DNA of 61,660 nucleotides from positions 1 through 61,660 of the IMG/VR virus record IMGVR_UViG_3300007535_000176; one strand, 5' to 3'. The notes beneath the pieces are model-generated. The model was not told the origin of the DNA and made no database searches. It saw only the letters and a list, made by a program, of their open reading frames with translations. Shown one piece after another: positions 3-35,218 of this stretch; positions within the stretch are counted from its first letter, which is position 1; every line of letters begins with the position of its first letter. A program made the translations under genes and the position numbers. Source of the DNA: a virus (taxonomy: Duplodnaviria > Caudoviricetes).

Positions 3-182
3 TCGCGCCAACTGCTGACAGAAACAATGAGCCTAGGACAACGTTTACGAGACGATCTTGGGATTGAGATTGCTGACATGGATAAACAATCAAGTCGCTT
101 TTTCAAGACTGTATATGTAAATCCTGCTCGTGTCGCACCCATGACACGAGAGACAGTAGTTCGAAATGAAATTGGCGATTAA
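3..182 (+). CDS. 3' end of an upstream gene (partial), possibly a glycosyltransferase-like phage protein
   Basis: Frame 3 is open from the window edge (SRQLLTETMSLG...SRFFKTVYVNPAR...EIGD*); its TAA overlaps the next ATG (TAATG). The product is a guess. Confidence 0.6.
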   Translation, partial: SRQLLTETMSLGQRLRDDLGIEIADMDKQSSRFFKTVYVNPARVAPMTRETVVRNEIGD

Positions 183-1750
183 TGACAAAGATAAATGATG
201 TCAATTGGGAGCGTGAACCTAGCGGCCTAATTGCTAACAACGAAAATAACATTGATAACGTTCGCAACTTGCTAAACAAAACAGGTTGTGGATTCTGCCT
301 TGCCAAGTTCAAACAGGTAACGCTGCATTTGGGCACGGGTATGACACACAGTTGTCATCACCCTACTCCACATCGCATTGATCCCGAAGCAGTTCAAGCT
401 GATCCCAATCAGTTATTCAATACACCAGAACTCAAAACTGCTCGACGACAAATGCTCAATGATGAAAAACCCAGCGAGTGTGATTATTGTTGGCGCGTTG
501 AAGACGATGGCGGCATGAGTGATCGCTATTTCAAAAGTCTTGAGCCCTGGGCGTTGCCAGATCATGATACAGTAGCAGCAAGCACTGGTGATGAAGATAT
601 CTACCCCAGCTACCTGGAAGTAAGCTTTAGCAATGTATGCAATATGAAGTGCACCTATTGCGGTCCAGAGTTTAGCAGTAAATGGGTTGAAGAACTCAAG
701 TCACAAGGACCAGTCAAACTGCTAGAAGGAACGGATAAAGAACAATGGGCGCAAGGATATCAGGATTTAGACACCCTCAATTACAAGCATAGAGAGTTTA
801 ATCCCTACATTGACGCATTTTGGAGATGGTTTCCAGATGCATTGCCCCATCTCAAGCACTACCGTATTACTGGTGGTGAGCCACTCATGAGCAAGGAAAC
901 ATTCAAGAGCATGGACTGGTTGATTGAAAACCCAAACCCCGAGATGGAGTTTTCAATCAACTCAAACTTCAGTGTGCCGGAAAAATTGTGGGACCGCTTC
1001 ATCGAGCGTCTCAGCGTGTTGCGAACTGGTAACCGCGTCAAAAAAATCACAATCTATACCAGCATTGAGGGCTGGGGAGAGCGTGCAGAATACGCGAGGA
1101 CAGGCTTGGACTTTGAATTGCTACGCAGACGTTACGAGCAAATACTACAGCTAGGCAATGTGCGATGCGTGGTCATGGCAGCATACAACATCTTTAGTGT
1201 TACCAGCATGAAGGAGATGTTGGAATGGTTGCATGAAATGAAAGTCCAGTATAATCCCAATAACTCTAGTGTTCATCTAGAAGAAAACACAGGCTTTGAA
1301 TTGGTTCCTGGCAGCTATGGCGCACGGCGCGAGGCCAATCCCCAACACCACGTCATAGCGGGTATTGATATACCATATCTACGTCATCCAGAGTATTTGG
1401 ATGCTCAGTATTGTGATGCAGACATGGTAGAGCGTTATATGATACCAACATTGGACTACATGTCCAGTCATGCAGCTAGCAGTGTGTGGGGCGACCATCA
1501 AGGATTTGAAAATTACGAAATTGAAAAACTCAAACGCATCATTGTTCATCGTATGTATTTCAATCGCAAAACTCGTGACGATCAGAACAGCCGTTATGAT
1601 ATAATGGAAAATCGTGCTAAGTTTTATGACTTCGTAAATAACATGGATCGACGTAGAGGCACAGATTTCCTAAAAACATTCCCTGAGATGAAAGATTTTT
1701 ACGAGCTATGTCGTGAAAGCAAAGAGGCATGGACTAAGATTAACAATTAA
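182..1750 (+). CDS. Radical SAM protein with N-terminal twitch domain (rSAM 1)
   Basis: N-terminal CLAKF...SCHH...ECDYCW; CNMKCTYC; TGGEP motif. Confidence 0.92.
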   Translation: MTKINDVNWEREPSGLIANNENNIDNVRNLLNKTGCGFCLAKFKQVTLHLGTGMTHSCHHPTPHRIDPEAVQADPNQLFNTPELKTARRQMLNDEKPSECDYCWRVEDDGGMSDRYFKSLEPWALPDHDTVAASTGDEDIYPSYLEVSFSNVCNMKCTYCGPEFSSKWVEELKSQGPVKLLEGTDKEQWAQGYQDLDTLNYKHREFNPYIDAFWRWFPDALPHLKHYRITGGEPLMSKETFKSMDWLIENPNPEMEFSINSNFSVPEKLWDRFIERLSVLRTGNRVKKITIYTSIEGWGERAEYARTGLDFELLRRRYEQILQLGNVRCVVMAAYNIFSVTSMKEMLEWLHEMKVQYNPNNSSVHLEENTGFELVPGSYGARREANPQHHVIAGIDIPYLRHPEYLDAQYCDADMVERYMIPTLDYMSSHAASSVWGDHQGFENYEIEKLKRIIVHRMYFNRKTRDDQNSRYDIMENRAKFYDFVNNMDRRRGTDFLKTFPEMKDFYELCRESKEAWTKINN

Positions 1751-2883
1751 TGCTACCATATGAACACATACGACGCATACACTTTGAATTGAGTAGTATC
1801 TGCAACGCAGCTTGCCCGAACTGTCCTCGCAACATTCATGGCGGCCGTGCGATACCCAATCTCAAAGAACGCGCCATAACATTTGATGAGTTCACAACCA
1901 TGATAGATGTGGACACCCTGGCTCAACTTGAACAAATACGTTTTTGTGGTAATTACGGTGACCCTGTTAGTGCCCGTGACCTACCACAAATCGTAGAATG
2001 GGTCTACAAGTATAATCCAGATATTCATATTGAAATCAATACAAATGGTGGTGCTAGAAACACCGAGTGGTGGCGACGTCTCGGAAAACTCATGAAAGGT
2101 CACACTGGATTTGTGATCTTTAGTGTTGACGGACTGGCTGATACCAATCATATCTATCGCCGCGGTGTTGTGTGGCAAAAGCTCTATGAAAACATTCAAG
2201 CTTATATTGGAGGTGGCGGGCGCGCAGTGTGGGAATTTTTGGTGTTTCAACACAACGAACATCAAATTGAGCAAGCCCGTGAACTGAGTCGCCAATTAGA
2301 CTTCAATGACTTTCGTGTCAAAAAGCCTTTCGGGTTCAATGACAGCTATAACAGCACGCCATATATGACTGTTCTAGATCGCGAAGGAAATTTTGAACGA
2401 GCACTTTGGCCCCGAGGTGTTGAGCCTGTTGATGTTGAACCACATGATATGGATTTGGATGCCTATCGTCTCGAGCTCACCCGCGCCCACAAGGCGGCAT
2501 TTGGAGATCGTGAAGAACAGGAAATGTATTTTGATTACATGGATCAAAGCCGACCCACTGGAATTGACTGCATGAGTATCCGTGATAGAGAAATTTATGT
2601 GGATAGTCAAGGCTATATGTATCCTTGTTGTTTTCTTGGTCATGGCGGCCAAGTCCAACGCGGACGCGAGACAGTATTTTTCCGACGCTGGGTTACGGAA
2701 AATGTAGGCTGGGATAATATCAGTCTTTTCAACAAAACAGTCCAAGAAATAGCCCAAAGCGAATATTTTGAATTAATAGAAAAAACATGGGACAAAACAC
2801 ATCGCGAAGGAAAAATGGCAATGTGTTCTCTCATGTGCTCGAGCGATTGTGCTCGCAACACAATGAGGAACCTTTATGACTAA
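1750..2883 (+). CDS. Radical SAM protein with C-terminal SPASM/twitch-like domain (rSAM 2)
   Basis: CNAACPNC; CGNYGDP; FSVDG; C-terminal C...YPCC...CSLMC. Confidence 0.92.
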   Translation: MLPYEHIRRIHFELSSICNAACPNCPRNIHGGRAIPNLKERAITFDEFTTMIDVDTLAQLEQIRFCGNYGDPVSARDLPQIVEWVYKYNPDIHIEINTNGGARNTEWWRRLGKLMKGHTGFVIFSVDGLADTNHIYRRGVVWQKLYENIQAYIGGGGRAVWEFLVFQHNEHQIEQARELSRQLDFNDFRVKKPFGFNDSYNSTPYMTVLDREGNFERALWPRGVEPVDVEPHDMDLDAYRLELTRAHKAAFGDREEQEMYFDYMDQSRPTGIDCMSIRDREIYVDSQGYMYPCCFLGHGGQVQRGRETVFFRRWVTENVGWDNISLFNKTVQEIAQSEYFELIEKTWDKTHREGKMAMCSLMCSSDCARNTMRNLYD

Positions 2884-4360
2884 ACGCAGCGCAGCAATAA
2901 ATTGGATGGACAACGTTGTCAACAAAAAAAGTCCAACGTTTTGTGGAGCCAAATGGTATAATGCAACTATATGGTTGGGAAATGGCGCAACAGCAAGTTG
3001 CCACCATCCACCCCCACACCAGATAGATGCTGATGAGGTTCGTAAAAATCCCAAGGCGTTGCATAATACAGAATACAAAAAACTTGTGCGCAAACAAATG
3101 TTGGAGGGTATCCAAACAAAAGAATGTGACTATTGTTGGCGTATTGAAAACATGGATTCTGAAGTAGTAAGTGATCGCTATTACAAGAGCAGCATCTATA
3201 GTGATGAGGAATTACAAGAAGCAGCAGACATGCCTTGGGATGCAGATGTTAACCTAAAACAACTAGAGATTGCATTTGATAACAATTGTAATTTTGCCTG
3301 CTCGTATTGCAACGCAGGATTTAGCACAACTTGGGCACACGACATCAATAAAAACGGTGCTTACCAAGATCTTACCAGTGATGGCTGGGGCGCGTTCGCC
3401 CATAATGGTAACTGGGCTCACCCATATGGCGTAAAAAACCAAGACAATCCATATGTTGAGGCATTTTGGAAATGGTGGGAAAGCGACTTACAATACAGCT
3501 TGCGCGAACTGAGAGTAACAGGCGGTGAAGCTACTGTGAGTTACGATTTTTGGAAATTGGTTGAGTGGTATGAAAACAATCCCCACTGTCCTGTAGAACT
3601 CAGTGTTAATACCAACTTGGGTGTAAAACGTCGCCCTCTTGATCGTCTCTGCAAACTCAGTCACAACATCAAAGGATTCAACCTTTTCACCAGCAACGAA
3701 AGCATGGGGTCAAACGCTGAGTATATACGTGACGGATTGATTTGGCCGGAATGGCAGGATAACCTTCGTTATGTCATGGACCACGGAAAATTTCAATATA
3801 TCCATGTCATGATGACTATCAATGCGTTATGCCTGGTAAGCTTTTGTGATTTTCATGAATTCCTACTGGACCTTCGTGAAAACAATCCAGATACTCGAAT
3901 CGAGTTCAGTCATAATATTCTGCGGTTCCCTAGTTTTCAGAGCATTACAACACTTCCCAAGCAGTTAAGAGAGCAACAGACTGAGGCGATGACAGCTTGG
4001 CTAGCAGCTAACGAGTATCGCTTGCAGCCGCACGAGATAGACGGTTTCAACCGCACCGTGCGCTATGTGCAAGAGATTGACGAGGGGCATAACATCGGTA
4101 ACTTGCACAGTGACCTTGAAAAACGACAGCGCGATTTCCGTAACTTTTACGCTCAATATGATCGCCGTAGGGGAAAAACATTTAGCGAATCATTTGCCAA
4201 TTGGCCCGAGCTAGTTGAGTGGTATGAGCATGTGGATGGCAGTGCCAATGTAAATAAGATTGACAATCTTATTGAAGGCGATGCAACTGAATGGGGCCGC
4301 CCGATATTTGATGAAGTGCTAGGTGAAGCACGGAAACAGAAACCAACTGATGACAAGTAA
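2876..4360 (+). CDS. Radical SAM protein with N-terminal twitch domain (rSAM 3)
   Basis: CGAKW...SCHH...ECDYCW; CNFACSYC; TGGEA; clear paralogue of rSAM 1. Confidence 0.92.
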   Translation: MTKRSAAINWMDNVVNKKSPTFCGAKWYNATIWLGNGATASCHHPPPHQIDADEVRKNPKALHNTEYKKLVRKQMLEGIQTKECDYCWRIENMDSEVVSDRYYKSSIYSDEELQEAADMPWDADVNLKQLEIAFDNNCNFACSYCNAGFSTTWAHDINKNGAYQDLTSDGWGAFAHNGNWAHPYGVKNQDNPYVEAFWKWWESDLQYSLRELRVTGGEATVSYDFWKLVEWYENNPHCPVELSVNTNLGVKRRPLDRLCKLSHNIKGFNLFTSNESMGSNAEYIRDGLIWPEWQDNLRYVMDHGKFQYIHVMMTINALCLVSFCDFHEFLLDLRENNPDTRIEFSHNILRFPSFQSITTLPKQLREQQTEAMTAWLAANEYRLQPHEIDGFNRTVRYVQEIDEGHNIGNLHSDLEKRQRDFRNFYAQYDRRRGKTFSESFANWPELVEWYEHVDGSANVNKIDNLIEGDATEWGRPIFDEVLGEARKQKPTDDK

Positions 4361-5504
4361 AACTAGATGTCCTATGCCATTTGCAGGTTTCGATATCGAA
4401 ACCAATGGCACTGTAAAGCCCTGTTGTATATATGAAGGCAGCATTGGTAACGTCAATGACGAAAGCATTGATGACATCTGGCATGGCGACAAACTTCAAA
4501 AGATCAGACAGGATCTAGAATCAGGCGTGCGAATTCCTGGTTGTCGGCAGTGTTGGATCGAAGAAGCCAGCACAGGACACAGCAAGCGCATACGTGAACA
4601 AGACCAGTTTCCCGACTCGGTCTATCAAACACCACAAGTTAAACGCCTAGATATTAAACTGGGTAACACCTGCAACCTAAAATGTCGTATCTGTAATTAC
4701 GAGAGTAGCAGTATTTTCAACAGCGAAAACAAACAGATTGCCAGACGCTTTCCAGACGCCCAAGTCAACTATATAGGCAATGACCGTGTGGATCGTTACA
4801 AGTGGTATCGTGACGAAGATTTTTGGAGGGTTATTCTCAAATATGGTCCTGAAATTGAACAGATAGACTTTATGGGTGGTGAGCCTTTGCTTGACAAAAC
4901 TCACAAGCGTATATTGGAAACTCTAGTAGAGCAAGGCCTTGCCCAAAACATTACCATTAACTACACAACGAATGGAACCATTGTTCCGGATTTTGAACTG
5001 CTACGTAATTTTCGTAGCATTCTATTCACGGTGAGTGGCGATGCCATTGAACACCGTTTTGAATACAATCGTTATCCAGTCCAGTGGTCAGATTTCAAAG
5101 ACAATATTTTTGATATAAGAGCTGGCGCTGACAGCTTTCTTATTAGCTACAGTGTTAGTAGTTATAGTCTATTCGGAATTCCAGATGCCTTGGATTATTA
5201 CATGGAAAATGGATATATAGTATGGTTCAATTATGTTCACTTAACAGAAGCTAGCAATGCACGAAACCTACCTCCTGAACTCAAAGAACAATTTAGGCAG
5301 CTCGTTGCTGAACGTAAACGAGACGAATGGTTGTGGACACGAGCCAACATACAAGAGGTTTTGGATTTTATTAATGTTGAAGACAATCCCAAGCACTTCC
5401 AAGATTTTATATATGATTGCAAATTGAGAGATCAATTCCGCGATCAAGATTTTAAGGACTATTTGCCAGAATATGCACCCTACGCCGATCTTGCACGAAT
5501 TTGA
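4350..5504 (+). CDS. Radical SAM protein with N-terminal twitch domain (rSAM 4)
   Basis: CPMPF...KPCC...CRQCW; CNLKCRIC; GGEPLL; start placed at ATG 4350 (MTSKTRC). Confidence 0.92.
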   Translation: MTSKTRCPMPFAGFDIETNGTVKPCCIYEGSIGNVNDESIDDIWHGDKLQKIRQDLESGVRIPGCRQCWIEEASTGHSKRIREQDQFPDSVYQTPQVKRLDIKLGNTCNLKCRICNYESSSIFNSENKQIARRFPDAQVNYIGNDRVDRYKWYRDEDFWRVILKYGPEIEQIDFMGGEPLLDKTHKRILETLVEQGLAQNITINYTTNGTIVPDFELLRNFRSILFTVSGDAIEHRFEYNRYPVQWSDFKDNIFDIRAGADSFLISYSVSSYSLFGIPDALDYYMENGYIVWFNYVHLTEASNARNLPPELKEQFRQLVAERKRDEWLWTRANIQEVLDFINVEDNPKHFQDFIYDCKLRDQFRDQDFKDYLPEYAPYADLARI

Positions 5505-6324
5505 CAATTGGAGTCGCACAGCCATGATAACATGTCTGTATCAAGGGCATCTCTATGATCTCTATCGACAATACAGTTCGGATATAGTGCGCAGCCATGA
5601 AGAATTTGCGAGATTTAATAATTGGGATTATCTAGTCATTGGTGATGAAATCAATAACATTTATGGTCTTGAATCATGGCGCGATACAAATATCGATGCA
5701 CGTTGTGACTGCCTAGGAATGAATAAATGGTATGCAATGGATTGGGTATTTGAAAATACTGATTATGATGAGATCTTATTGGTTGATTTTGATAGCAAAT
5801 TTATCTATAACACAGAATTAAACTTGGGTGACTGCGACATAAAGGCTACGCATCTCACGCTCAGTCCTTATTATGATACTACTTGGTTCCTCTATTATTG
5901 TCTATATAAAAATGTTCCGTTTGAACAGATCAACCGTGCCGTGCCATTCAAATTCAACACAGGCTTTATTAAAGTTCGCCGGGGATTTTTCCAGCGCAGT
6001 GATTTGGATGAGTTCGTTGATTTTGCTTGCCGAACACTGAATAATGTTAAATACAATGAGCGCAAAAGTTGGATAGACATGAGCAATGCTGATATGGCTC
6101 GTATCCATGAAACACACAATACAACGCTTACGCCGTTTGATGAAGTGTTCTTGGTTTATCAAATAATGCAACAAGAACCAACGATTGAAGAATTTGATAA
6201 GCGATTTAACATCAACAGCACAGATCTCATGGATCGTGATACTGCTCACGTTCATTTCTGCGTTAACAAAGAGCGTGATATCAAAATATTGTGTGAGCCA
6301 GGACGGGCGGAGTTTTTGAAGTGA
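5473..6324 (+). CDS. Glycosyltransferase-like protein (GT-A fold)
   Basis: LLVDFD (DxD), FNTGFI, DE and HVHF motifs typical of GT8/GT34-like nucleotide-diphospho-sugar transferases. Confidence 0.6.
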   Translation: MHPTPILHEFDNWSRTAMITCLYQGHLYDLYRQYSSDIVRSHEEFARFNNWDYLVIGDEINNIYGLESWRDTNIDARCDCLGMNKWYAMDWVFENTDYDEILLVDFDSKFIYNTELNLGDCDIKATHLTLSPYYDTTWFLYYCLYKNVPFEQINRAVPFKFNTGFIKVRRGFFQRSDLDEFVDFACRTLNNVKYNERKSWIDMSNADMARIHETHNTTLTPFDEVFLVYQIMQQEPTIEEFDKRFNINSTDLMDRDTAHVHFCVNKERDIKILCEPGRAEFLK

Positions 6325-7346
6325 GTGCACCAGAAAATCTAGAACAATATCTCAAGGACCACATTTGTTTCAAACCCTGGGATAGTATAAGCATTGAACC
6401 CAATGGTGATGTAATTAACTGTTGTATGCCTTGGTTGCCCAAACCCATTGGCAACTTGTTTGAAAATACAATGGAAGAAATCCTCAACAGCGAGGCAAGC
6501 CGCGAAGTGCAGGAGAGTATCCTGGATGGAAGTTATCGCTATTGTAACAAAGATATGTGTAGTGAGATATATGGTGGACGTTTGCCCGCGCGACCAGACG
6601 AGATGAAACTTCCTCGCCGCCCATACAAGATTCGCTTCAATAACGATCGCAGTTGTAACCTATGGTGTCCTAGTTGTCGTCTACGCCGTGTTCAGCACAA
6701 TGAAGGACCAGCATATGAAAAAGCCAAATGGCTAAATGATCGAGTCTATGAATACATGCTAGAGCAGGCAGATCGCGGCCCAGTTGAGATTTGGGTCACA
6801 GGTAGTGGCGATGCGATTGGAAGTCGTATCTATCGTGACATGCTCAAAAGCATTAATGGGGCTGAATTTCCTGATCTCAAAATCAACTTAATGACCAATG
6901 GTGTATTGTTTACGCCCAAGACGTGGGAAAGCCTGCATCGAATCTGGAATAACATTACATTAATTGATATCAGTGTTGATGCAGGCACAAAAAGCGTCTA
7001 TCAAAAGATGAGACCTCCAGGCAAATGGGATCAACTACTCAGCAACGCAAAATACCTAGGCGAGTGTGCGCAAGAGTATCGCAATATCGATATCAATTAT
7101 GGATTTGTTGTGCAGCATGGTAACTACAAGGACATGGTCAATTTTGTTGACACATTCAGTCAGTTCGAGCGTTATCATTTGCTCAACTTTACTTTGGTTA
7201 ATGATTGGAATACCTGGGAAGATTTTGGTAGTCATGCTGTATGGCGGCGTAGCCATCCAGAGCATGAAGAGTTTTTGGAAATGGTGCGGAGGCCAGAATT
7301 AGAAGATGAGCGAGTGTTTATGGGCTCGCTCAAACGTTTTCTCTAA
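6321..7346 (+). CDS. Radical SAM protein with N-terminal twitch domain (rSAM 5)
   Basis: CFKPW...INCC...CNKDMC; CNLWCPSC; TGSGDA; ISVDA. Confidence 0.9.
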   Translation: MSAPENLEQYLKDHICFKPWDSISIEPNGDVINCCMPWLPKPIGNLFENTMEEILNSEASREVQESILDGSYRYCNKDMCSEIYGGRLPARPDEMKLPRRPYKIRFNNDRSCNLWCPSCRLRRVQHNEGPAYEKAKWLNDRVYEYMLEQADRGPVEIWVTGSGDAIGSRIYRDMLKSINGAEFPDLKINLMTNGVLFTPKTWESLHRIWNNITLIDISVDAGTKSVYQKMRPPGKWDQLLSNAKYLGECAQEYRNIDINYGFVVQHGNYKDMVNFVDTFSQFERYHLLNFTLVNDWNTWEDFGSHAVWRRSHPEHEEFLEMVRRPELEDERVFMGSLKRFL

Positions 7347-7439
7347 TTATTTGTAAATGAATGGATCTTTTCGAGCAATCTTGCGAAACTTTCGCTTTAG
7401 ACGCCACTCTGACCATTTGCGCTTAAACCAAGCCATCAT
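7347..7439 (-). CDS. 30-aa basic peptide MMAWFKRKWSEWRLKRKFRKIARKDPFIYK (KDPFIY family, copy 1)
   Basis: Hand-translated; GGAGGAG Shine-Dalgarno 7 nt upstream; paralogue at 13407-13511. Confidence 0.8.
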   Translation of the reverse strand: MMAWFKRKWSEWRLKRKFRKIARKDPFIYK

Positions 7440-9886: not shown

Positions 9887-9910
9887 AGGGTTCCTAACAT
9901 TTGTTACTTC

Positions 9911-9939
9911 TATTTAGTGCTGACTTAATTTGCTAAATA
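9911..9939. promoter_or_regulatory. Divergent pair of CTAAATA motifs (T4-type late promoter-like)
   Basis: tatttag at 9911-9917 (CTAAATA on -) and ctaaata at 9933-9939 (+) in the only divergent gap of the cluster. Confidence 0.6.
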
Positions 9940-9944
9940 CGTGC

Positions 9945-13511: not shown

Positions 13512-13512
13512 A

Positions 13513-14262: not shown

Positions 14263-14277
14263 ACTAAAGGAGTTCAC

Positions 14278-16804: not shown

Positions 16805-16816
16805 TTGAGTATTTGA

Positions 16817-26903: not shown

Positions 26904-28113
26904 ATCAACTTTCTGTGTAGCACCATTTATACATCAAAGCATGAAAACTGACGGCAGTATCAAAGCTTGTTGTCGCAGCTTGCCCGCGATCAGTAATGTC
27001 CGTGAAGAACCACTCAGCGAGGCTTGGAACAATCCCTTGCTTAAACAGATGCGATTGGATCTCACAAGCGGAGAGACAAACAAGCGTTGCCGCATCTGTT
27101 TTGATCAAGAAGAACAAGGCGTTAAAAGCCTGCGACAAAAATACAACAGCAATCAAGACCGTTACGCCCGAGCAATTGATGTAGCAGAACGCATGGAAGA
27201 GGATGGCACAGTAAACGATTCTCCACAGTGGATTGAATTCAAACTCAGTAACCTTTGCAATCTCAAATGTCGAATGTGTCATCCACTGGATAGCACCAAG
27301 TGGTTTAACGACTATAAACTAGTCGAACATTTGCATGAAGATCAATGGCAACACTACCTAGCCAAAGCAGGTGTTGACAAAAAGCCATTGCTCAATGTTT
27401 TTGATGAAGACTTTCACGCAGACGTAAAACAATTTTTGGATAACGTGGACTATCTACAATTTGCAGGAGGTGAACCTCTTTATGATGACGCGCATTATGA
27501 GATCCTTGAGATTGTTCGACCAAGAGCACATGAGATCACACTCAACTATGCCACGAATATGACAGTGCTGTCAACCAAGAAATACAATGTTTTGGACTTT
27601 TGGCGTGATTTCAAAAGCGTTATGGTCAGCGCGAGTATTGATGGGCCACCAGGACTCAATGATTATATACGTGGTGGAGCAGAGCGTTACGATATTGAAC
27701 TCAATGTCAAAAGAGTCAATGAATTGCCAAATTGTATTACTGTTGGCAAGCCAACTATCCAGGCACTCAATATCTATTATCTGCCAGAACTATTTGAATG
27801 GATCAAACAAAACAATTTTAAACAAGTAGATCATCATTTTGTTACCTTTCCGAAATTCTTGGATTGTCGTATTTGGACAGGCCGAGCTAGAATGGAAATT
27901 GATGCTAAATTACAAAACTATTACGAAAATCAAACTGATGAGCGGACGCGCAATGTCCTAGATAACATACTCACCTTTTTCCGCAGTGCCGAAATGTATG
28001 AGGACCAAAAATGGGATGATTTTCTCGAATACAATCGCATATTGGACGATGCCCGTGATCAAAATTACAAAGATTATGCGTTTTTTAGAGAATACATGAA
28101 GGATAGAAAATGA
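26893..28113 (+). CDS. Radical SAM protein with N-terminal twitch domain (rSAM 13)
   Basis: CVAPF...ACC...CRICF; CNLKCRMC; AGGEPL; ASIDG. Confidence 0.93.
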   Translation: MIDKSTFCVAPFIHQSMKTDGSIKACCRSLPAISNVREEPLSEAWNNPLLKQMRLDLTSGETNKRCRICFDQEEQGVKSLRQKYNSNQDRYARAIDVAERMEEDGTVNDSPQWIEFKLSNLCNLKCRMCHPLDSTKWFNDYKLVEHLHEDQWQHYLAKAGVDKKPLLNVFDEDFHADVKQFLDNVDYLQFAGGEPLYDDAHYEILEIVRPRAHEITLNYATNMTVLSTKKYNVLDFWRDFKSVMVSASIDGPPGLNDYIRGGAERYDIELNVKRVNELPNCITVGKPTIQALNIYYLPELFEWIKQNNFKQVDHHFVTFPKFLDCRIWTGRARMEIDAKLQNYYENQTDERTRNVLDNILTFFRSAEMYEDQKWDDFLEYNRILDDARDQNYKDYAFFREYMKDRK

Positions 28114-29261
28114 GCGATACATTTTGTGTTTTACCCTGGATGCATCTAGCCACCAACGCAAGTGGTAATTTGCGAGTGTGTTGTAACAGCACGCCAGGTA
28201 AAAACATGATACTCAAAGAGGATGGCAAGCCCTATAAATTGTGGCGAGATGACATCCGTGATGCATGGACAAGCGAAACCTATAAAGAAATTCGCAGGCA
28301 AATGCTGGCGGGTGAAAGACCTGAAATGTGTCAGCGTTGTTTCCGTGAAGAAGATGTAGGTGTTAAGAGCGCCAGACAGAGTTGGAATCAAAAGTGGCGA
28401 GAGGATCGTGTTTATGAAGCCGAGCCTGAAATGGATATACGATATGTGGATTTGCGATTGGGCAATTTGTGCAATTTGCGTTGTCGTATGTGTAACCCAT
28501 ACGCAAGCAACCAGTGGGTTGATGAGTGGAAAGAACTTACCGGGCAAGATCTCGGCGAGAGTGAGTTCAATCGTCTCAAGCACATGGATTGGCCTGAGCA
28601 TGAAAAGACCTGGGATAATCTATTCAGCTTGGTTGACAGTATTGATGAAATCTATTTGACGGGTGGTGAACCAACCATTATCCAACAACAGCATCGTTTA
28701 CTGGATCATTGTATTGAACGAGGGCTTGCTAAAAGCATCAAATTAAAGTATAATACAAACTTGACTAACATACCACAAAGGTTAGTTGAAAAGTGGAGCC
28801 AATTCCGCACAGTGCAACTCAATTGCAGCATTGATGCAACGGGGGCGCTGGACAGATATATTCGATATCCAAGCAATTGGAGCAAGATCCAAGAAAACTT
28901 TGAACGGGTGCGCGAACTGGACAACAGCTATGTCGAAATACATTGCACGGTTCAGATGTATAACATCACCCGGTTACATGAATTAATAGACTGGGCAGAG
29001 CCCTACGGACATAAGATTTACTTCAATATCCTCAACCATCCTGAGTGTCTAAACATACGTGTTTTGGACAGTGGTCTAAAAAACCAAGTCACACAAATTT
29101 TAGCACAATACACTCATCTTGAACGTGTTCAAGGTGTGATAGATTATATGAACGCGGAGGATTGGAGTGAGCATTACGATGAGTTTGTTCGCTATACAGA
29201 GGTATTAGATCAAAGCAGAGACGAAAGCGGACGTGACTTGTTACCGGAGTTGTTTAAATGA
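28110..29261 (+). CDS. Radical SAM protein with N-terminal twitch domain (rSAM 14)
   Basis: CVLPW...VCC...CQRCF; CNLRCRMC; TGGEPT; YIRYPSNW. Confidence 0.93.
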   Translation: MSDTFCVLPWMHLATNASGNLRVCCNSTPGKNMILKEDGKPYKLWRDDIRDAWTSETYKEIRRQMLAGERPEMCQRCFREEDVGVKSARQSWNQKWREDRVYEAEPEMDIRYVDLRLGNLCNLRCRMCNPYASNQWVDEWKELTGQDLGESEFNRLKHMDWPEHEKTWDNLFSLVDSIDEIYLTGGEPTIIQQQHRLLDHCIERGLAKSIKLKYNTNLTNIPQRLVEKWSQFRTVQLNCSIDATGALDRYIRYPSNWSKIQENFERVRELDNSYVEIHCTVQMYNITRLHELIDWAEPYGHKIYFNILNHPECLNIRVLDSGLKNQVTQILAQYTHLERVQGVIDYMNAEDWSEHYDEFVRYTEVLDQSRDESGRDLLPELFK

Positions 29262-29836
29262 AGATACTTATAAGCGGTAACAGCGATCGTGGACTTAGTG
29301 CTGCCATTGGCCTCCAAATGCCAGAACATGCAATCGAGTATGCTAGTCGCAAGAGTGGTTTTGACTTGTGCACAAGAGATGGGCGCGATGCCTTTGTAGA
29401 ATTGGCTGTGTCAGCAGATGTTGTGATAGTTTGCGCAGCACTACACCAATTTCAACAGACAGTGCTTCTAGAGGCTGTCAGCAAGCGTCTCCGCGCGTCA
29501 GGCACCGCGCCACAAATCATAGTGGTAGGCAGCACAACAGATCGTGTCAAGAATGGAAAGCCTTGGCTATACAATGCTGAGAAAAAAGCATTGCGTGATT
29601 TTAGCAACACACTTGCAATCGGCGGAGTGTGGACTGATGGCTTGCCCAAGGTCAGTTACATCAGCTTTGGTACATTGAGTAACAATCAGGAGAAGCATCC
29701 TGACCGTCACTGTATAGACATTGACCAAGCAGCAGGCTACGTTAAATGGTTGATTGAACAACCCCGTCATGTCAATATCAACGAGATAAGTATCGATCCC
29801 ATGCAGGGAAGCATGTGGCATAGCGACCAGGAATAA
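29258..29836 (+). CDS. Short-chain dehydrogenase/reductase-like oxidoreductase
   Basis: ILISGNSDRGL Rossmann start, VGS, YNAEK (YxxxK), C-terminal INEISI. Confidence 0.75.
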   Translation: MKILISGNSDRGLSAAIGLQMPEHAIEYASRKSGFDLCTRDGRDAFVELAVSADVVIVCAALHQFQQTVLLEAVSKRLRASGTAPQIIVVGSTTDRVKNGKPWLYNAEKKALRDFSNTLAIGGVWTDGLPKVSYISFGTLSNNQEKHPDRHCIDIDQAAGYVKWLIEQPRHVNINEISIDPMQGSMWHSDQE

Positions 29837-29839
29837 ATC

Positions 29840-30586
29840 GTGAGTTTGGGAATATTTGGAGACAGCTACGCACAAGACCAGGGCCAACCTGGATGGGTGG
29901 CTAAAATGATTGAAGAGCGTGGTGCAGTAAGCCACGGAAAGGAAGGATTGGGAACAGATTGGATCTATCAACAATTCGTGCAGCATCACAATGAATATGA
30001 AAGAGTAATTGTTTTCATATCCAATTTTATGCGAACCTGTTTGTTTGATGCTGAATGGGAAATGATCCAAGACTTGGAATCATATGACGATTTGGATATG
30101 GGACGTATCCGTGCTGTTGGTGTCGCAGCAACATATGAAAAGGCCGAAAAGACCAGCACTCGTCTTTTTGGCAATGATTTTGTTCCTGAAGTCAAGGTGC
30201 TCTGCAAAGCAAAGGACCGATTGCGAGAGAGGTTGCCACTTACATCAATCATCACACAACATGCAATGATCAATAGCATAAAATTGACACGTCCAGATGC
30301 AATTGTCGTCAACAGCTTTCCATTGGGCAAGATGGGTGGTATGCATAACATCACTAAAATGGATACTGATCGACTCGCGACACGCTGGGAAGTTAGCAAC
30401 GTCCGCAAAAATCACATGTCACCCGCACAAAATGCAATGTTCTTTGAACTCATGAAAAAAGCATTGGATGACGAATCTTTTGATATCAACTCAACCTTAA
30501 AAGCAGATCAATTGCGTCGTTATTATCCAGCATCACAATCTCTTGAAGAGGCAGGATTAAGAAGAAATGGCAAACCAAAACGATGA
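29840..30586 (+). CDS. SGNH/GDSL hydrolase-like protein
   Basis: IFGDSY; G..G; C-terminal KNHMS. Confidence 0.58.
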   Translation: MSLGIFGDSYAQDQGQPGWVAKMIEERGAVSHGKEGLGTDWIYQQFVQHHNEYERVIVFISNFMRTCLFDAEWEMIQDLESYDDLDMGRIRAVGVAATYEKAEKTSTRLFGNDFVPEVKVLCKAKDRLRERLPLTSIITQHAMINSIKLTRPDAIVVNSFPLGKMGGMHNITKMDTDRLATRWEVSNVRKNHMSPAQNAMFFELMKKALDDESFDINSTLKADQLRRYYPASQSLEEAGLRRNGKPKR

Positions 30587-31688
30587 TCTAAAATGGAGTG
30601 AGTACGATTTCACAAAAATTCCATTTGATGATTTGGTAAGCGTGGGACAACGCACAATGCTCTATCGCGATATATTTACAGTGAGTTGGCTATTGGGCCG
30701 CTTCTGTAACTATCGCTGCTCATATTGTTGGCCTTATGCTCGCAGCAATACAAAAGATCACCGCCCAACAGAACTCTGTCTAAAAACCATAGACGAAATC
30801 AAGCGTCAGGCACGTGAAAACGGGTTCAATAGTTTTCACTTTAGCTTGAGCGGGGGCGAGCCCACGTTTCATCCAGGCTATTTGGATATTCTCAAGCATC
30901 TAGCTGACGATGTCCCCAACACGAACTATACCAGCATACATAAAACAAGCAATTGCTCAAGACCAATTCGTTGGTATGAAGAATTTGTTGAGCGAGCAAA
31001 ACCATTTCACAGAGCAAGTATTACAGCAAGCTTGCATACAGAGCACGTCAATACACCTGAGAAAATGCAGGAGTTTGCAGACAAACTCATACTTTGTCAA
31101 GAACATGATGTCCAGGTTACTATCAACATGGTCATGGTGCCAGAGCTGTTTGATGAGTATTGGGAAAATGCTCTTTTCTTCCATGAACAAGATATTAACG
31201 TCACTCTTAAACCACAAAGCGACCCAACCGCCAGCCGAGTCGTCGACGGTTACACAGATGAAATGCTCGAACGTTTGTGGAATGGCATGCCACAAAGGGC
31301 ATATACTGAAGCTAGGCGTAAATGGGCTGATCGCCCGCGCCCTGCTTTTGAATTGCCAGATCATGCACCTGGCAAAAATGATAAAAGTGTCCCTTGGCAT
31401 ATGCAAGTTGAGTTTGAAGATAAGCATGGCAAGAAATGGTATATGGATCAAGCAGAACGATTTAATGCATTCAACTTTAACAAATTCAAAGGTTGGTCTT
31501 GTAATGCTGGATTTCAAGGCATTGTGATACGTGAACCAGATGGTTCGATTAAAAGAAGCTATAGTTGTGCTGACGTCCCTTTGGGTAATATAGAAACAGG
31601 CTTCAAGCTTTTTGATGGGCCAAGACCATGTATTACCCAAGCCTGTGTTAGCAGTGCTGACAGCAAAATACCCAAGAGAAAAGTATGA
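30567..31688 (+). CDS. Radical SAM protein with C-terminal Cys-rich domain (rSAM 15)
   Basis: CNYRCSYC; SGGEPT; ASLH; WSCNAG...C...CITQAC. Confidence 0.92.
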   Translation: MANQNDDLKWSEYDFTKIPFDDLVSVGQRTMLYRDIFTVSWLLGRFCNYRCSYCWPYARSNTKDHRPTELCLKTIDEIKRQARENGFNSFHFSLSGGEPTFHPGYLDILKHLADDVPNTNYTSIHKTSNCSRPIRWYEEFVERAKPFHRASITASLHTEHVNTPEKMQEFADKLILCQEHDVQVTINMVMVPELFDEYWENALFFHEQDINVTLKPQSDPTASRVVDGYTDEMLERLWNGMPQRAYTEARRKWADRPRPAFELPDHAPGKNDKSVPWHMQVEFEDKHGKKWYMDQAERFNAFNFNKFKGWSCNAGFQGIVIREPDGSIKRSYSCADVPLGNIETGFKLFDGPRPCITQACVSSADSKIPKRKV

Positions 31689-32521
31689 AAGACAGACCGT
31701 TATTTTTTCTTAGTGCGCCCCGAACTCGTAGTAGTATCCTCTTTGAGATGAGTGAACCTTACATCAACACAAGATTTGAACTACGGTCTCTTAAAGGACA
31801 CAGTGAGTTCTTTCTTACCCGATCTCCTTGGGCTAAGTTTGTGGACAAAAGAACAGGTCAAGAACATCAGGCTGATATGTATCCTGTTGCAGATCGTTCA
31901 GGCGATATCACAATGCATCATGTCTGGCCAAGTATGTATAAAGATATGCATGAGGCCGTTGAACATAAATGTGAGTTCTTAGCAACGTTACAAGCACAAC
32001 GAAAACACTATAATGTTAAAGGCACACTCGAATGCGGTTTACAGCCAGAATTGGTAATCCTACTTTTCCGAGATCGCCATTTTGTATTCACTAAGCGCCG
32101 TAATATCACAGACATGGTAGCCAGCACATTGTTTGCATTGCGCATCAAGGCATTTCATATGCGCCCAAACAATGAAGAACACTACAGACAGTCGCTCTCC
32201 GAGCCGATCACGCTAACACAGGATGAACTTGCAATTGGCAAGCGCCTTCTTATACACTGTAATCGTCTATGGGCCATGGAAAACATGTGCGAGCAAATGA
32301 ATTTGCCCTATTCCACAGTGTATTATGAAGATATGGATACTGAAGATCATCTAATCAACACACTCACAGAATTACATGGAACGCCAGAATGGGTTGATTA
32401 TCTGTCAGAAGATTATCATCTCAAAGTTCCTATGCGCATTGACAAGGACTATTGCAAACTGATCACTAACTATGATGATATCGAAGAACTGGTAAATATG
32501 GCTAATGAAACAACGGTTTGA
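31685..32521 (+). CDS. Sulfotransferase-like protein
   Basis: APRTRSSIL loop; KRRNITDMVAS; YYED. Confidence 0.62.
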   Translation: MKDRPLFFLSAPRTRSSILFEMSEPYINTRFELRSLKGHSEFFLTRSPWAKFVDKRTGQEHQADMYPVADRSGDITMHHVWPSMYKDMHEAVEHKCEFLATLQAQRKHYNVKGTLECGLQPELVILLFRDRHFVFTKRRNITDMVASTLFALRIKAFHMRPNNEEHYRQSLSEPITLTQDELAIGKRLLIHCNRLWAMENMCEQMNLPYSTVYYEDMDTEDHLINTLTELHGTPEWVDYLSEDYHLKVPMRIDKDYCKLITNYDDIEELVNMANETTV

Positions 32522-33089
32522 ACAACTTGAAGGGTTGCCCACACCAGACATTCTTCCTGAAATAACAGCATTGGGATTGGATTGGGGTCCGAGCAACCAG
32601 ATCTGTATTAATACAGTAGAACCTGGTAGCGATGACTATCAGCTGGGAACAGGTAGTCTCAAATATGACTGGGCCAACAAACGTCCGGTAACACTGCCCG
32701 ACGGTTCAACTAAATGGGAGGTCCCTGAGTATTCAGTGCAATATGATGAGAGTGACTTCCAATACCTAGTTGACATTTTTCAAGGCACACTGATTGAAAG
32801 TGTTTATAGTGCTCTTGTTGATAGTGGATATAAACTGGGCCGTATACGATTGATGCGTAACGAACCCAAAACATGTTTGAGCTGGCACGTGGATACTTCG
32901 CCGCGTCTGCATTTTCCAGTTAAAACACATACAGGTTGTTTTATGGTGATAGAAGACGAAGTTCGTCATTTGCCAGAAAGGACATGGTGGATGACTAACA
33001 CAACACTTCCACATACCGCATTTAATGCAAGTCGCGAAAGTCGCATACACTTGGTAGCTTGTATTTTAAACAAACATTCAAATTTATAA
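32505..33089 (+). CDS. Aspartyl/asparaginyl beta-hydroxylase-type 2OG-Fe(II) dioxygenase
   Basis: RIRLM...LSWHVD...RLHFP...HTAFN...RIHLV. Confidence 0.8.
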   Translation: MKQRFEQLEGLPTPDILPEITALGLDWGPSNQICINTVEPGSDDYQLGTGSLKYDWANKRPVTLPDGSTKWEVPEYSVQYDESDFQYLVDIFQGTLIESVYSALVDSGYKLGRIRLMRNEPKTCLSWHVDTSPRLHFPVKTHTGCFMVIEDEVRHLPERTWWMTNTTLPHTAFNASRESRIHLVACILNKHSNL

Positions 33090-33105
33090 TTATGGGGATA
33101 TCAAC

Positions 33106-33801
33106 ATGTCAGTGAAATTTTATAGTGAACAACCACATATAACAGACTTGTATCCTCTCGTGCCGGCACGTGAATATAAACGAGAATGGGTCCGTGATTG
33201 CGCTATCGCACACAAAAAATATGACAAGGTAATTGACCATCGTGCTAATAATCGCACTGCCGCAAAATGCCCAGGTATGCGCAACATGATGGAAGCAGGT
33301 TACATTGTGCGCAGTTGGTTTGATTTCACAATTGAAACTGATGCTGCTCGGCCTTTTGATTACCAAGCATATTTTCCTGAAACACTTGATAAACCACTGC
33401 GTGAGATAGGATGGACAACTGACGATTTGATTGGCCATTTCAATACCAAAATGACTCCACTTAAAATACCAACCTACAACTATCACAAAATCATATTAAA
33501 GATATATGTGCCATGGACGATTGAAGTGCCTGCCAGTATGGGCTTACAAATATTGCCAGTTACTCTTGATGATAACCCATCACTAACTGCCGTTCCTGGA
33601 ATGTTTACTCAGGGTCTTTATACTCATTTCAACATACACGCCTACTGGCACGAGACCAATGGACGTGTTTTCGTGCCAGCCGGCACACCACTTGCCCAGC
33701 TAATCCCTGTCACAGTGGGGGAGATCAGCACTGAAGACATGACAGAAGAAAAGAAACATGAGCGCGACGTAACGTTTCTAAAGAACAGGAATAAATTTTA
33801 A
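33106..33801 (+). CDS. Hypothetical phage protein (KCPG...GTPLAQLIP type)
   Basis: Motifs I associate with T4-like phage proteins found beside 2OG oxygenases; function unknown. Confidence 0.6.
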   Translation: MSVKFYSEQPHITDLYPLVPAREYKREWVRDCAIAHKKYDKVIDHRANNRTAAKCPGMRNMMEAGYIVRSWFDFTIETDAARPFDYQAYFPETLDKPLREIGWTTDDLIGHFNTKMTPLKIPTYNYHKIILKIYVPWTIEVPASMGLQILPVTLDDNPSLTAVPGMFTQGLYTHFNIHAYWHETNGRVFVPAGTPLAQLIPVTVGEISTEDMTEEKKHERDVTFLKNRNKF

Positions 33802-33802
33802 G

Positions 33803-33809
33803 GTAAATA
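33803..33809 (+). promoter_or_regulatory. TAAATA late promoter-like motif 5 nt before ATG
   Basis: gtaaata-cacac-ATG, same spacing as ctaaata-cgtgc-ATG at 9933-9947. Confidence 0.5.
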
Positions 33810-33814
33810 CACAC

Positions 33815-34630
33815 ATGGAAAAAACACTCGAAACACCAATGCTCAAGCGGCAACATTTGCCTCTTATGACCAAACTCAATATGACAGTTGATATTGAAAG
33901 ACTCCGCACAGAGTTCTTTAATATGGGACTGGATGATTTTAGCAAATATAACGGACTCAGCTATGATAAAGCCGCTGAGGATGGACTGATTGTTCGTCGC
34001 GTCCTGCTAGAATATTTCCTCAATGATGAAGAGCTTGCCGCCCAGGCCGACAAAGAAATCGCTGAGGGCGGAGAAAGTTACAAAATGCTCTGCCTCACAG
34101 AGTTTAACGGCGATCCAGAACATGCCAGCCGCAACCTCAAGGAAAAGCTTGGCGATGTTCGTGATCCACGCGCCCTTGCTCGTAGATTGGAAAAGATCTC
34201 AGATCCTGACCATCCAGATTATGTGCCTATCGCTGACGAGAAGCTTTATGACAAGCGTAACGAGTTCTGCTCGGGTTATGTGGGTGAGATCATGGATATG
34301 ATTGAAGACAATATTGGACACGTTGCACGAAGCCGCTTTGCAGTTCTACGTGCTGGCGAACAAATCAAGCCTCATCTAGATATCAATACCGACAAGGCCG
34401 TGCGCATTCACATTCCAGTGGTAACTCATCCAGATGTTGTATTTGGTCTTCAAGGCAAGCGTCGAACAGTTGAACAACATATGCCAGCAGATGGAAGCGT
34501 GTATTTCATCAATCAAGGTTATAAGCATTGGGTCTACAATAATAGCCCAATTGACCGTGTGCATTTGATGTTCGTTGTTACTGGTCAGCGTGGAATTACT
34601 GAAGGCAAAGAAGTTTACTGGGACGAGTAA
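33815..34630 (+). CDS. Aspartyl/asparaginyl beta-hydroxylase-type 2OG-Fe(II) dioxygenase
   Basis: RSRFAVL...IKPHLD...RIHIP...HWVYN...RVHL. Confidence 0.82.
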   Translation: MEKTLETPMLKRQHLPLMTKLNMTVDIERLRTEFFNMGLDDFSKYNGLSYDKAAEDGLIVRRVLLEYFLNDEELAAQADKEIAEGGESYKMLCLTEFNGDPEHASRNLKEKLGDVRDPRALARRLEKISDPDHPDYVPIADEKLYDKRNEFCSGYVGEIMDMIEDNIGHVARSRFAVLRAGEQIKPHLDINTDKAVRIHIPVVTHPDVVFGLQGKRRTVEQHMPADGSVYFINQGYKHWVYNNSPIDRVHLMFVVTGQRGITEGKEVYWDE

Positions 34631-35218
34631 ATGCGCAAGCTACATCACATCACAATGGACTTGATGGATCGCGAGTGCAAGACTGTTACAACTGATGTTC
34701 CATCAGAAGATTTTTGTTGGATTAACAAAAAAGTTCACCAAGCAAATCAATACCGCAGTGAAAATTATGTTGTGGATAAAAGAATGCTTGATTGGAGTGT
34801 GTGTTACACTGTAACTTATGTTGGAAAAATTCCTGCTCTTGCTAGTGCAGCTTGGGCCCGTCCATTTTACAATGGCCATGTCCGTGTTCTAACTCATTAT
34901 TGCATAAATCCAGACTTACAAGGGGCTAAATTTGGTCGTGGAATAGATGGTATGCGAATCGATGTGGCGTCTCATGCCGACCAGCAAATCGCCTTCTGCA
35001 AAAATCAAGGATACGAAAATTTTTTTATTAGCAAGGAAGACAAAACAAACACAGGACGTAATGCGAACCTGATTTGCTCGAAATTAGATCGTTATAGTGA
35101 ACATCCTTGGAAGATAACAGAGGGGCGATGCCTAGTCGCCCCTGATAGAAAAAATCCAGCCTGTTGGCAATGGATTATGTTTAATGACGTTCCACCACCG
35201 TTAGATGGCTTTGTTTGA
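34631..35218 (+). CDS. Hypothetical protein, possibly GNAT-like
   Basis: RVLTHYCINPDLQG segment loosely GNAT-like; abuts the previous stop. Confidence 0.45.
   Translation: MRKLHHITMDLMDRECKTVTTDVPSEDFCWINKKVHQANQYRSENYVVDKRMLDWSVCYTVTYVGKIPALASAAWARPFYNGHVRVLTHYCINPDLQGAKFGRGIDGMRIDVASHADQQIAFCKNQGYENFFISKEDKTNTGRNANLICSKLDRYSEHPWKITEGRCLVAPDRKNPACWQWIMFNDVPPPLDGFV

Follow-up and report, generated by a model that had tools for sequence, protein, structure and literature searches.

Radical S-adenosylmethionine (SAM) genes are mentioned in passing for islands of T4-like marine phages. Twelve such genes, read as part of Fe-S metabolism, occur in a marine genome of T4-like type with a size of 183 kb (Nishimura et al. 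2017, PMC5332604), and pelagimyophages contain a hypervariable host-recognition island together with core proteins that include a peptide deformylase and an Asp/Asn hydroxylase (Zaragoza-Solas et al. 2020, PMC7029224); the accessible portions of these two reports name neither a family nor a chemistry for the radical SAM proteins. Here we analyze an island with 15 radical SAM genes at positions 182–35218 of the IMG/VR virus record IMGVR_UViG_3300007535_000176 (Duplodnaviria; Caudoviricetes). The whole linear record of 61,660 bases is referred to as the window (CheckV completeness 17%). In a reading that we hold with about even confidence, the products of the island form a soluble pathway in the cytoplasm, which would assemble a carbohydrate (a nucleotide sugar or short glycan) and then edit it heavily by radical chemistry. 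Two families that the pelagimyophage report lists among the core proteins, peptide deformylase and Asp/Asn hydroxylase, are also present in the window. The marine systems, as far as they are described there, differ from ours: the carriers of the present island are about twice as large (∼360 kb) as the T4-like marine phage, and the island abuts a ThyA/DHFR block, whereas that of pelagimyophages and cyanomyophages lies between VrlC and gp14. In addition, radical SAM genes dominate here, with 621 of 1366 non-overlapping open reading frames (ORFs) of at least 150 amino acids in 84 related phage loci being radical SAM-like, as defined by a family hidden Markov model (HMM) match or by the CxxxCxxC motif. 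We class the locus with the known phage hypervariable glyco-islands, as one built around an uncharacterized enzyme family. Radical SAM enzymes are oxygen-sensitive and cofactor-hungry, and to give them about half of the genes of a 35–55-kb island, as hundreds of related contigs do, is an unusual investment.

The interval 182–35218 holds 36 large ORFs (g1 to g36), 33 on the plus strand and three on the minus strand (7423–9886), and an ORF of 75 amino acids at 16015–16242 makes 37. CxxxCxxC is found in 15 of the 36, spanning 182–31688, and a six-frame search of the record with PF04055 returned the same 15 places, 12 of them above the Pfam cut-off. An earlier annotation of this DNA, the sequence-only reading, had reported 15 tightly coupled radical SAM genes in about 31.5 kb that run off the left edge, with no non-ribosomal peptide synthetase (NRPS), polyketide synthase (PKS), transporter, or leader peptidase among them, and our analysis agrees on each of these points. 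Neighboring genes on the same strand meet at 34 junctions; at 28 of these they overlap or abut, and at 33 the distance is at most 20 nucleotides. Bases 1–181 encode the C terminus of a gene whose orthologue (328 amino acids, a paralogue of the glycosyltransferase A (GT-A)-like gene g15) is located just upstream of the first radical SAM gene in the closest relative, G004, and the island therefore extends beyond the left edge; a further 10 kb upstream of this orthologue in G004 contain no additional radical SAM gene. NRPS, PKS, transporter, and peptidase domains gave no Pfam match among the 36 large ORFs, and a hydropathy scan detected no multi-pass membrane protein, so that all 36 products appear soluble. 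The only multi-pass membrane protein nearby, of the fatty-acid-desaturase family, sits at the right border of the island (35201–35860, minus strand). The window contains no N bases and no tRNA genes.

Nine of the 15 radical SAM proteins belong to NF033640 (N_Twi_rSAM, 'twitch domain-containing radical SAM protein', NCBIfam), a family that is defined by bioinformatics only and has a curated cut-off of 170 bits. They score 195–427 bits and share a layout in which an N-terminal four-Cys domain precedes the CxxxCxxC core: g1 (182–1750, 319.7 bits, CxxxCxxC at residue 153), g3 (2876–4360, 288.2 bits), g4 (4323–5504, 298.5 bits, SPASM at 16–78 before the core at 112–244), g9 (8618–9886, minus strand, 366.2 bits), g21 (19406–20494, 194.9 bits), g23 (21354–22778, 426.5 bits, the most conserved gene of the island), g24 (22778–23878, 295 bits), g27 (26893–28113, 323.3 bits), and g28 (28110–29261, 397.3 bits); genes are on the plus strand unless stated otherwise. 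The divergent g6 (6321–7346) keeps this layout, with PF13186 at 16–76 and PF04055 at 111–251, and scores 53.6 bits, below the cut-off. PF13186 is found at residues ∼3–103, ahead of PF04055, in eight proteins (g4, g6, g9, g21, g23, g24, g27, and g28). Two enzymes carry a C-terminal SPASM/twitch-type domain. In g2 (1750–2883; PF04055 30.3 bits) an N-terminal core is followed by PF13186 at 274–363 (E 6e-4), and an alignment of the g18 family, which includes g2, reveals a conserved C-terminal Cys set (invariant Cys-256, Cys-275, Cys-276, Cys-344, and Cys-348); g18 itself (16817–17899; PF04055 34.8 bits) is present with ≥50% identity in 72 of the 80 loci. No auxiliary domain was detected in g20 (18426–19409; PF04055 48.5 bits; best NCBIfam match viperin-like, 47.8 bits, far below cut-off), g26 (25827–26903; PF04055 37.5 bits), and g31 (30567–31688; PF04055 57.6 bits), the last conserved gene of the island, which 37 of the 80 loci retain with ≥50% identity.

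The four Cys residues of the N-terminal domain (C-x17-C … C-x2-C) are present in 90–96 and the catalytic triad in 95–96 of 96 aligned family members, and NF033640 members frequently have a fifth Cys adjacent to the four conserved ones. This twitch domain presumably holds one auxiliary Fe-S cluster. Positions 5–71 of the family profile align to the twitch domain of BtrN (residues 186–257, E 2e-6), which thus shares one homologous auxiliary-cluster domain with the island enzymes; the domain is C-terminal in BtrN but N-terminal here, and no profile match to BtrN extends outside it. The term 'twitch/SPASM', used in the sequence-only reading, is accurate as a label, but 10 of the 15 enzymes carry the domain at the N terminus and form a separate, uncharacterized family rather than relatives of BtrN, NeoN, and HygY. 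The best structural neighbors of the core are the SPASM maturases (anSME, CteB, SkfB, and SuiB; Z 11–13, Foldseek E ∼1e-6), which have seven or eight auxiliary Cys residues, compared with four in the island family, where the domain order is permuted and Pfam finds no RiPP recognition element (RRE; RiPP, a peptide that is synthesized by ribosomes and modified post-translationally).

With the family profile, the best sequence matches in the PDB are 8vpo, SkfB, and CteB, the core matching at E ∼1e-13. PDB sequence searches gave no match for g31 and only NifB (E 0.0015) for g18. An AlphaFold 2 model of g28 (predicted local distance difference test score, pLDDT, 96.5) has no close solved relative (Foldseek template modeling (TM) score ≤0.43, E ∼1e-6), and comparison with the PDB in VIA-align matched the core only (residues ∼109–343). 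The Z scores of this core are 13.0 for anSME, a peptide enzyme, 12.9 for BlsE, acting on a sugar nucleoside, 12.2 for viperin, acting on a nucleotide, and 12.2 for the peptide enzyme SkfB. Because these scores are all tied, the modeled fold of g28 does not reveal the substrate class.

Paralogues within the window are mutually 20–35% identical, whereas G004 contains orthologues of all 15 radical SAM proteins in the same order with 50–86% identity. A quick maximum-likelihood tree was built from 34 sequences; it has long branches, and we use only the interleaving. Paralogues of the window, of phage G001, and of a Bdellovibrionia genome are fully intermixed in it (18 label changes; mean after shuffling, 16.4), and g28 pairs there with a protein of bacterial origin with an approximate likelihood ratio (SH-aLRT) support of 100%. 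The paralogues being divergent, the orthologues ordered, and the lineages interleaved, the array is made up of different enzymes and is no recent amplification, and distinct old subfamilies would fit an assembly line of separate steps. Among 275 full-length family members of related loci, which fall into 87 clusters at 55% identity, the CxxxCxxC triad is kept in 273, the other two being on masked sequence. The family profile retrieves 9,981 representatives (clustered at 50% identity) at E≤1e-30 among 1.84 billion, so that ∼10,000 diverged clusters in public data belong to a family with no characterized member and no close solved structure. We searched the literature for NF033640, N_Twi_rSAM, and N-terminal twitch enzymes without finding a paper, and likewise for phage radical SAM arrays, viral or phage-encoded radical SAM enzymes, and radical SAM enzymes in jumbo, huge, or giant phages. 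In many members of the family, two N-terminal-twitch modules are fused in tandem, giving proteins of 750–1400 amino acids (for example at 11411–14041, minus strand, of locus L089).

The genes interspersed with the array suggest a sugar-type substrate. We firmly assign g13 (11920–13410) by its profile matches to the carbamoyltransferase family (NodU/CmcH type; PF16861 156.9 bits and PF02543 124 bits, both over cut-off) and not to NodU itself (equivalog 123.5 bits against a cut-off of 1000). The AlphaFold 2 model of g15 (14278–14985; pLDDT 87.9) returned 38 Foldseek matches at E≤1e-3, those listed all being glycosyltransferases (TM 0.29–0.43); the DxD residues Asp-57 and Asp-59 are invariant in 18 sequences, there is no Pfam match, and the profile has no PDB sequence match. 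We consider g15 a moderately supported GT-A-fold protein. Soluble virus-encoded transferases of GT-A type that work without membrane export machinery are known from chlorovirus capsid and mycobacteriophage virion glycosylation, and PBCV-1 A64R is among the Foldseek matches of g15 (rank 50); to our knowledge, neither system uses radical SAM enzymes. Sulfotransferases are defined by the 5'-PSB and 3'-PB motifs that bind 3'-phosphoadenosine 5'-phosphosulfate. In g12 (11189–11923), g14 (13513–14262; PF13469 E 0.0074, below cut-off; no orthologue between those of g13 and g15 in G004), and the divergent g32 (31685–32521), Arg-12, Ser-15, Arg-107, and Ser-116 are invariant across eight aligned sequences, and the sole PDB matches of their profile at E<1 are the CurM sulfotransferase (E 0.014) and NodH (E 0.45); the three proteins might be sulfotransferase-like. 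Four others may resemble SGNH hydrolases, sharing invariant Gly, Ser, Gly, and His residues in their alignment: g7 (7423–8097, minus strand, GSS replacing GDS, the weaker case, no Pfam match), g8 (8094–8621, minus strand, N-terminal GDS, no Pfam match), g10 (9930–10691, no Pfam match), and g30 (29840–30586).

The C-terminal part of g25 (23866–25827; 653 amino acids, PF05118 at 484–649), g33 (32505–33089; 44.2 bits), and g35 (33815–34630; 37.6 bits) are firmly predicted to be Asp/Asn-hydroxylase-type cupins of family PF05118. The N-terminal part of g25 is unassigned, its profile finding nothing below E 0.16 in the PDB. For g16 (14966–16018), a lineage-core protein with N-terminal repeats and no Pfam match, a language-model lead (Methyltransf_31, score 0.95, 21% of members) is the sole pointer to a methyltransferase-like function. 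The short g29 (29258–29836; ≥50% identical in 34 of the 80 loci) might be related to short-chain dehydrogenases/reductases (SDR), having a Gly-rich N terminus by eye and a marginal match to NF038213 (25.3 bits) that covers only residues 157–182, the C-terminal 26; g17 (16235–16804, no relevant Pfam match) looks kinase-like by eye only. The accessory labels, those of the sequence-only reading among them, have uneven support: the carbamoyltransferase and the three cupins have strong Pfam matches, and the GT-A fold at 14278–14985 is backed by model and Foldseek. The sulfotransferase and SGNH labels have conserved motifs and weak matches only, and those of methyltransferase, SDR, and kinase have the pointers just given. 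Accessory genes come and go between the two closest genomes, since G004 lacks g7, g8, and g14 while keeping all radical SAM genes.

In a Pfam census of 130 representatives of non-radical SAM gene clusters from sister islands, we found UDP-Glc/GDP-Man dehydrogenase (two), NAD epimerase (one), GDP-mannose 4,6-dehydratase (one), DegT aminotransferase (one), sugar C-methyltransferase (one), TylF (one), mannose-6-phosphate isomerase (one), the NTP transferase NTP_transf_3 (two), a cytidylyltransferase-like protein (one), GDSL (two), Peptidase_G2 (two), PF05118 (four), nitroreductase (three), and a nucleoside phosphorylase-type protein (PNP_UDP_1, one). By their domain assignments, these families make up a nucleotide-sugar tailoring vocabulary. 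One might speculate that the PNP_UDP_1 and nitroreductase proteins clear 5'-deoxyadenosine and supply electrons for the radical SAM enzymes, respectively. Outside the island, on the minus strand, three adjacent genes have best NCBIfam matches that together cover all four activities of the GDP-D-glycero-alpha-D-manno-heptose route, all below the equivalog cut-offs: a GHMP kinase closest to the heptose 7-phosphate kinase HddA (53121–54134; 118.7 bits against 600), a fusion of an HddC-like sugar-1-phosphate nucleotidyltransferase with a GmhB-like HAD phosphatase (54134–55369; HddC 130.7 against 300, GmhB 112.2 against 178), and a GmhA-like sedoheptulose-7-phosphate isomerase (SIS; 55297–55878; PF13580 92.2 bits, TIGR00441 192.5 against 209). 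This set resembles the GDP-heptose route of Campylobacter capsule and S-layer (GmhA, HddA, GmhB, and HddC), and its link to the radical SAM enzymes is one that we infer.

The 75-amino acid protein encoded at 16015–16242 was absent from the sequence-only reading, its gene filling an apparent intergenic gap between g16 and g18, where it abuts g18 directly if g17 is absent. It has tblastn matches of 56–76% identity in ∼75 of 94 loci, a mean column identity of 75%, which is above that of most island enzymes, and 3327 homologues, those listed being 73–83 and nearly all 74 residues long. It lacks conserved Cys residues as well as variable stretches, and many of its invariant positions are aromatic. 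A search of the PDB with its profile returned only designed repeat proteins and antibody chains, which we judge spurious, and a predicted complex with g18 scored 0.00, the prediction giving no verdict. Possible roles of the protein are those of scaffold, acceptor, chaperone, or small subunit. Together with the GT-A-like g15, the methyltransferase-like g16, and two radical SAM enzymes (g18 and g23), it constitutes a lineage core that offers a starting point for the first chemistry of the NF033640 family.

A homologous array exists in bacteria. Three Bdellovibrionia metagenome-assembled genomes (MAGs) contain close relatives of g28 (40–50% identity), and in one of them (G006, contig C1, 917 kb, with rpoD and dnaG next door) 13 NF033640 matches over cut-off lie at 745.5–774.9 kb (array limits 745,513–774,880; loci L092–L094 and L088), out of 20 in the whole genome. 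This array has in common with the phage islands a g18-like radical SAM protein, a g16-like protein, and both halves of g25, as well as two further proteins that are 44–50% identical to phage ones; two accessory proteins of the array gave no match in the PDB. Relatives of the GT-A, sulfotransferase-like, SGNH-like, and 75-amino acid proteins were not found there (HMMs, E≤1e-3). As the Bdellovibrionia array comes without these sugar-type relatives, the radical SAM array and its cupin partners would form a portable unit to which the phages have added the sugar set.

Taken together, the carbamoyltransferase, the GT-A-fold, sulfotransferase-like, and SGNH-like proteins, the heptose set, and the nucleoside diphosphate-sugar enzymes of sister islands fit a sugar-type substrate and in this respect agree with the sequence-only reading, which had proposed an assembly line for a decorated glycan; for its placement of the product on the virion, we found no support. 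We infer a scheme of four steps. A GDP-heptose-type pathway of the phage, or nucleotide sugars of the host, would provide a building block, which the GT-A-fold transferase would join to an acceptor. Each radical SAM enzyme would then abstract a specific hydrogen, leading to epimerization, oxidation, dehydration, decarboxylation, or C-C bond formation, and carbamoyl-, sulfo-, methyl-, and acyl-handling enzymes would cap hydroxyl or amino groups. Since membrane, flippase, and polymerase proteins are absent from the island, an acceptor in the cytoplasm, for which a virion protein is one example, seems to us more likely than direct remodeling of the host envelope. Several observations weigh against a carbohydrate product. 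The core of the g28 model ties peptide, sugar-nucleoside, and nucleotide enzymes and so does not separate the substrate classes; the PF05118 cupins and the very conserved 75-residue core protein would suit a protein substrate; the GT-A-, methyltransferase-, SGNH-, and kinase-like labels come without a Pfam match, and several accessory labels are weak; and the heptose genes, besides falling below the equivalog cut-offs, are located 18 kb off the island on the other strand. The sugar-tailoring set is no obligatory partner of the array, since its relatives were not found in the Bdellovibrionia array (HMMs, E≤1e-3), and because of this our confidence in a carbohydrate pathway stays near one half. 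Should a glycan of the virion or of the cell surface be the product, the island would open up a new way for surfaces to diversify in the conflict between phage and host, and it would be a source of new radical carbohydrate chemistry.

The strongest competing explanation, although one we regard as unlikely, is that the radical SAM enzymes and cupins modify protein, either the 75-residue protein as a RiPP-like precursor or scaffold or the virion proteins, generating cross-links and epimerized or hydroxylated residues which the sugar-type enzymes decorate further. SPASM/twitch enzymes include many peptide maturases, in line with the best profile matches (8vpo, SkfB, and CteB) and with anSME at Z 13.0; PF05118 cupins, of which the island encodes three, are mostly known for hydroxylating Asp/Asn residues of proteins, and g25-like ones recur in the Bdellovibrionia array; and the 75-residue protein, with its invariant aromatics, has about as many homologues as g23 (3299). 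Yet a Pfam search of the 36 proteins at E≤0.01 revealed no RRE/PqqD-type domain, and whereas peptide maturases usually carry a recognition domain in their N-terminal region, this region is occupied by the twitch domain here. The 75-residue protein is moreover uniform, lacking conserved Cys residues or a variable core, which does not suit a precursor for 87 enzyme types, and it was not found in the Bdellovibrionia array. A small molecule derived from an aminoglycoside, nucleoside, or sugar, and serving host takeover, phage competition, or signaling, seems to us less probable again. Clusters for aminoglycoside and nucleoside antibiotics typically combine radical SAM, carbamoyl-, sulfo-, methyl-, and aminotransferase and deoxysugar enzymes, BlsE and viperin are among the closest cores, and a bacterial chromosome carries a homologous array; this compares with an island in which Pfam and hydropathy detect no exporter or resistance gene, with a GT-A transferase inside the conserved core, and with an extreme variability in gene content between related phages that is more typical of surface or recognition structures.

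Hypermodification of DNA, in which a complex base adduct would evade host restriction, appears highly improbable. T4-type phages do glycosylate their DNA, some thymidine hypermodification pathways use a radical SAM enzyme, and the window contains a QueE-like gene and a GTP cyclohydrolase I gene of the 7-deazaguanine route. ThyA is canonical, however, scoring over the equivalog cut-off, and is the sole PF00303 gene in four of five large relatives (none in the fifth); a tRNA-guanine transglycosylase (TGT)/DpdA-type enzyme was found in none of these five, which are 41–67% complete, and DNA glycosyltransferases, base kinases, and hydroxymethylases are missing from the Pfam matches. At least 15 radical SAM steps would also go far beyond any DNA modification known to us. 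To an artifact, either a phage/bacterial chimera or decaying passenger genes, we assign a negligible probability, despite the close homologues in bacterial MAGs; of the five MAG contigs concerned, two share the gene order of the phages and look like phage DNA that was binned with them. Four further sequencing runs, each under its own study and not flagged as possible source, yielded contigs that cover 25001–45000 evenly at ≥99% identity (three of 35 X5 records at 95–99%), and the junction of island and backbone is bridged by X4 (31059–35881), X6 (34043–36467), and X3 (35748–38102). The islands of both close relatives also run through the g31 orthologue to the ThyA/DHFR block, directly in G001 and, as in the window, with several genes between in G004. 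All frames are open and substitutions are strongly biased to synonymous sites (dN 0.12–0.33 with saturated dS; dN/dS 0.04–0.11 for the five of 13 genes where it is computable), which indicates that the island genes are real and under purifying selection. Neither the relaxed selection nor the bacterial chimera that the sequence-only reading had envisaged as possible flaws is thus seen.

Returning to what the array may write, we put forward a broader idea that is tentative and that we rank well below the carbohydrate pathway: N-terminal-twitch radical SAM enzymes would be a large, so far unrecognized class of 'radical editors' used in arrays, with every phage or Bdellovibrionia genome combining its own set of 10–20 old subfamilies to write genome-specific C-H functionalizations on one polymer, be it a glycan or the 75-residue scaffold. 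If so, the result would be a hypervariable product for recognition or evasion, a viral, combinatorial radical-chemistry counterpart of O-antigen diversity.

Relatives of the g23 protein are encoded in 384 IMG/VR stretches (the best 80 are 74–85% identical) and number 3299 at E≤1e-10 in a set of 5.8 billion proteins; among 120 homologues listed, on contigs of up to 353,636 bases, none is named beyond generic automatic labels. Loci of ∼21 kb around g23 relatives contain 2–13 CxxxCxxC ORFs each. The five large relatives (147–246 kb) have 19, 5, 15, 14, and 12 NF033640 matches at E≤1e-5, and in two of them a Gp23-type capsid protein (PF07068) scores over cut-off. The CheckV completeness of the window (17% for 61.7 kb) and of the largest relative (67% for 246 kb) both imply a genome of ∼360 kb. 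A megablast search of the accessible GenBank phage records, from which near relatives may be missing, gave no match for 1–25000 and 36000–60000, and tblastn of g23 against the same phages gave only four weak ones (22–28% identity). Left of the island, G001 encodes a protein of 1870 amino acids with similarity to a structural protein from the virions of PA5oct/Munch-type jumbo phages (27% identity over 51%), while upstream in G004 one gene has no GenBank phage match and another shares a 75-residue C-terminal piece with baseplate proteins. On this thin evidence, structural genes may flank the island. We conclude that the carriers are uncultured Gp23-type jumbo phages of ∼360 kb, related to the PA5oct/Rak2 type, and that the island, rather than being unique to the window, is a local variant of a gene block that occurs across the lineage and changes fast. 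A weak Gp23 match (profile positions 223–319, 26 bits) was noted for a protein of 221 amino acids encoded between ThyA and DHFR (37126–37791, minus strand; 57% identity in G004). All 14 public runs holding 16801–26800 are labeled soil metagenome, several homologous proteins carry Tara tags, and the lineage may span habitats. Two contigs filed in Crocinitomicaceae and Gammaproteobacteria MAGs (L085 and L086) match the phage island in gene order. This is probably phage DNA that ended up in bins of cells, and it may hint at hosts.

The remaining island genes have no assignment. g5 (5473–6324) is without Pfam or NCBIfam match and without a match in 80 loci and in G004, g22 (20470–21381) also lacks a match in both databases, and g11 (10684–11220), g19 (17896–18453), and g34 (33106–33801) have no Pfam match; the product of g36 (34631–35218) contains eight Cys residues. 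The only sizeable gap of the island harbors a basic ORF of 47 amino acids (13368–13511) that is weakly conserved (tblastn, three loci, 46–47% identity).

The minus strand arm to the right of the island encodes backbone proteins, including canonical ThyA, DHFR, thymidine kinase, peptide deformylase, a 5'-3' exonuclease, and a PolB fragment. The S-adenosylmethionine synthetase MetK, pointed out in the sequence-only reading, is indeed present outside the island (48183–49277, minus strand; PF02773, PF02772, and PF00438 over cut-off) and possibly supplies SAM to the radical SAM enzymes. The late-type promoters of that reading were not recovered: the T4 consensus TATAAATA occurs 0 times in the window compared with 2.3 expected by chance, and looser T4-type late heptamers form no pattern upstream of genes. 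The QueE-like gene (49402–50286, minus strand), which would be a 16th gene of radical SAM type in the window, and the GTP cyclohydrolase I gene (52433–53107, minus strand) of the 7-deazaguanine route are part of this arm. A DUF2201 metallopeptidase/VWA protein (39912–41261, minus strand) and a MoxR-type AAA ATPase (42099–43208, minus strand) are encoded ∼0.8 kb apart, and both are kept in G001 and G004 with 43–89% identity.

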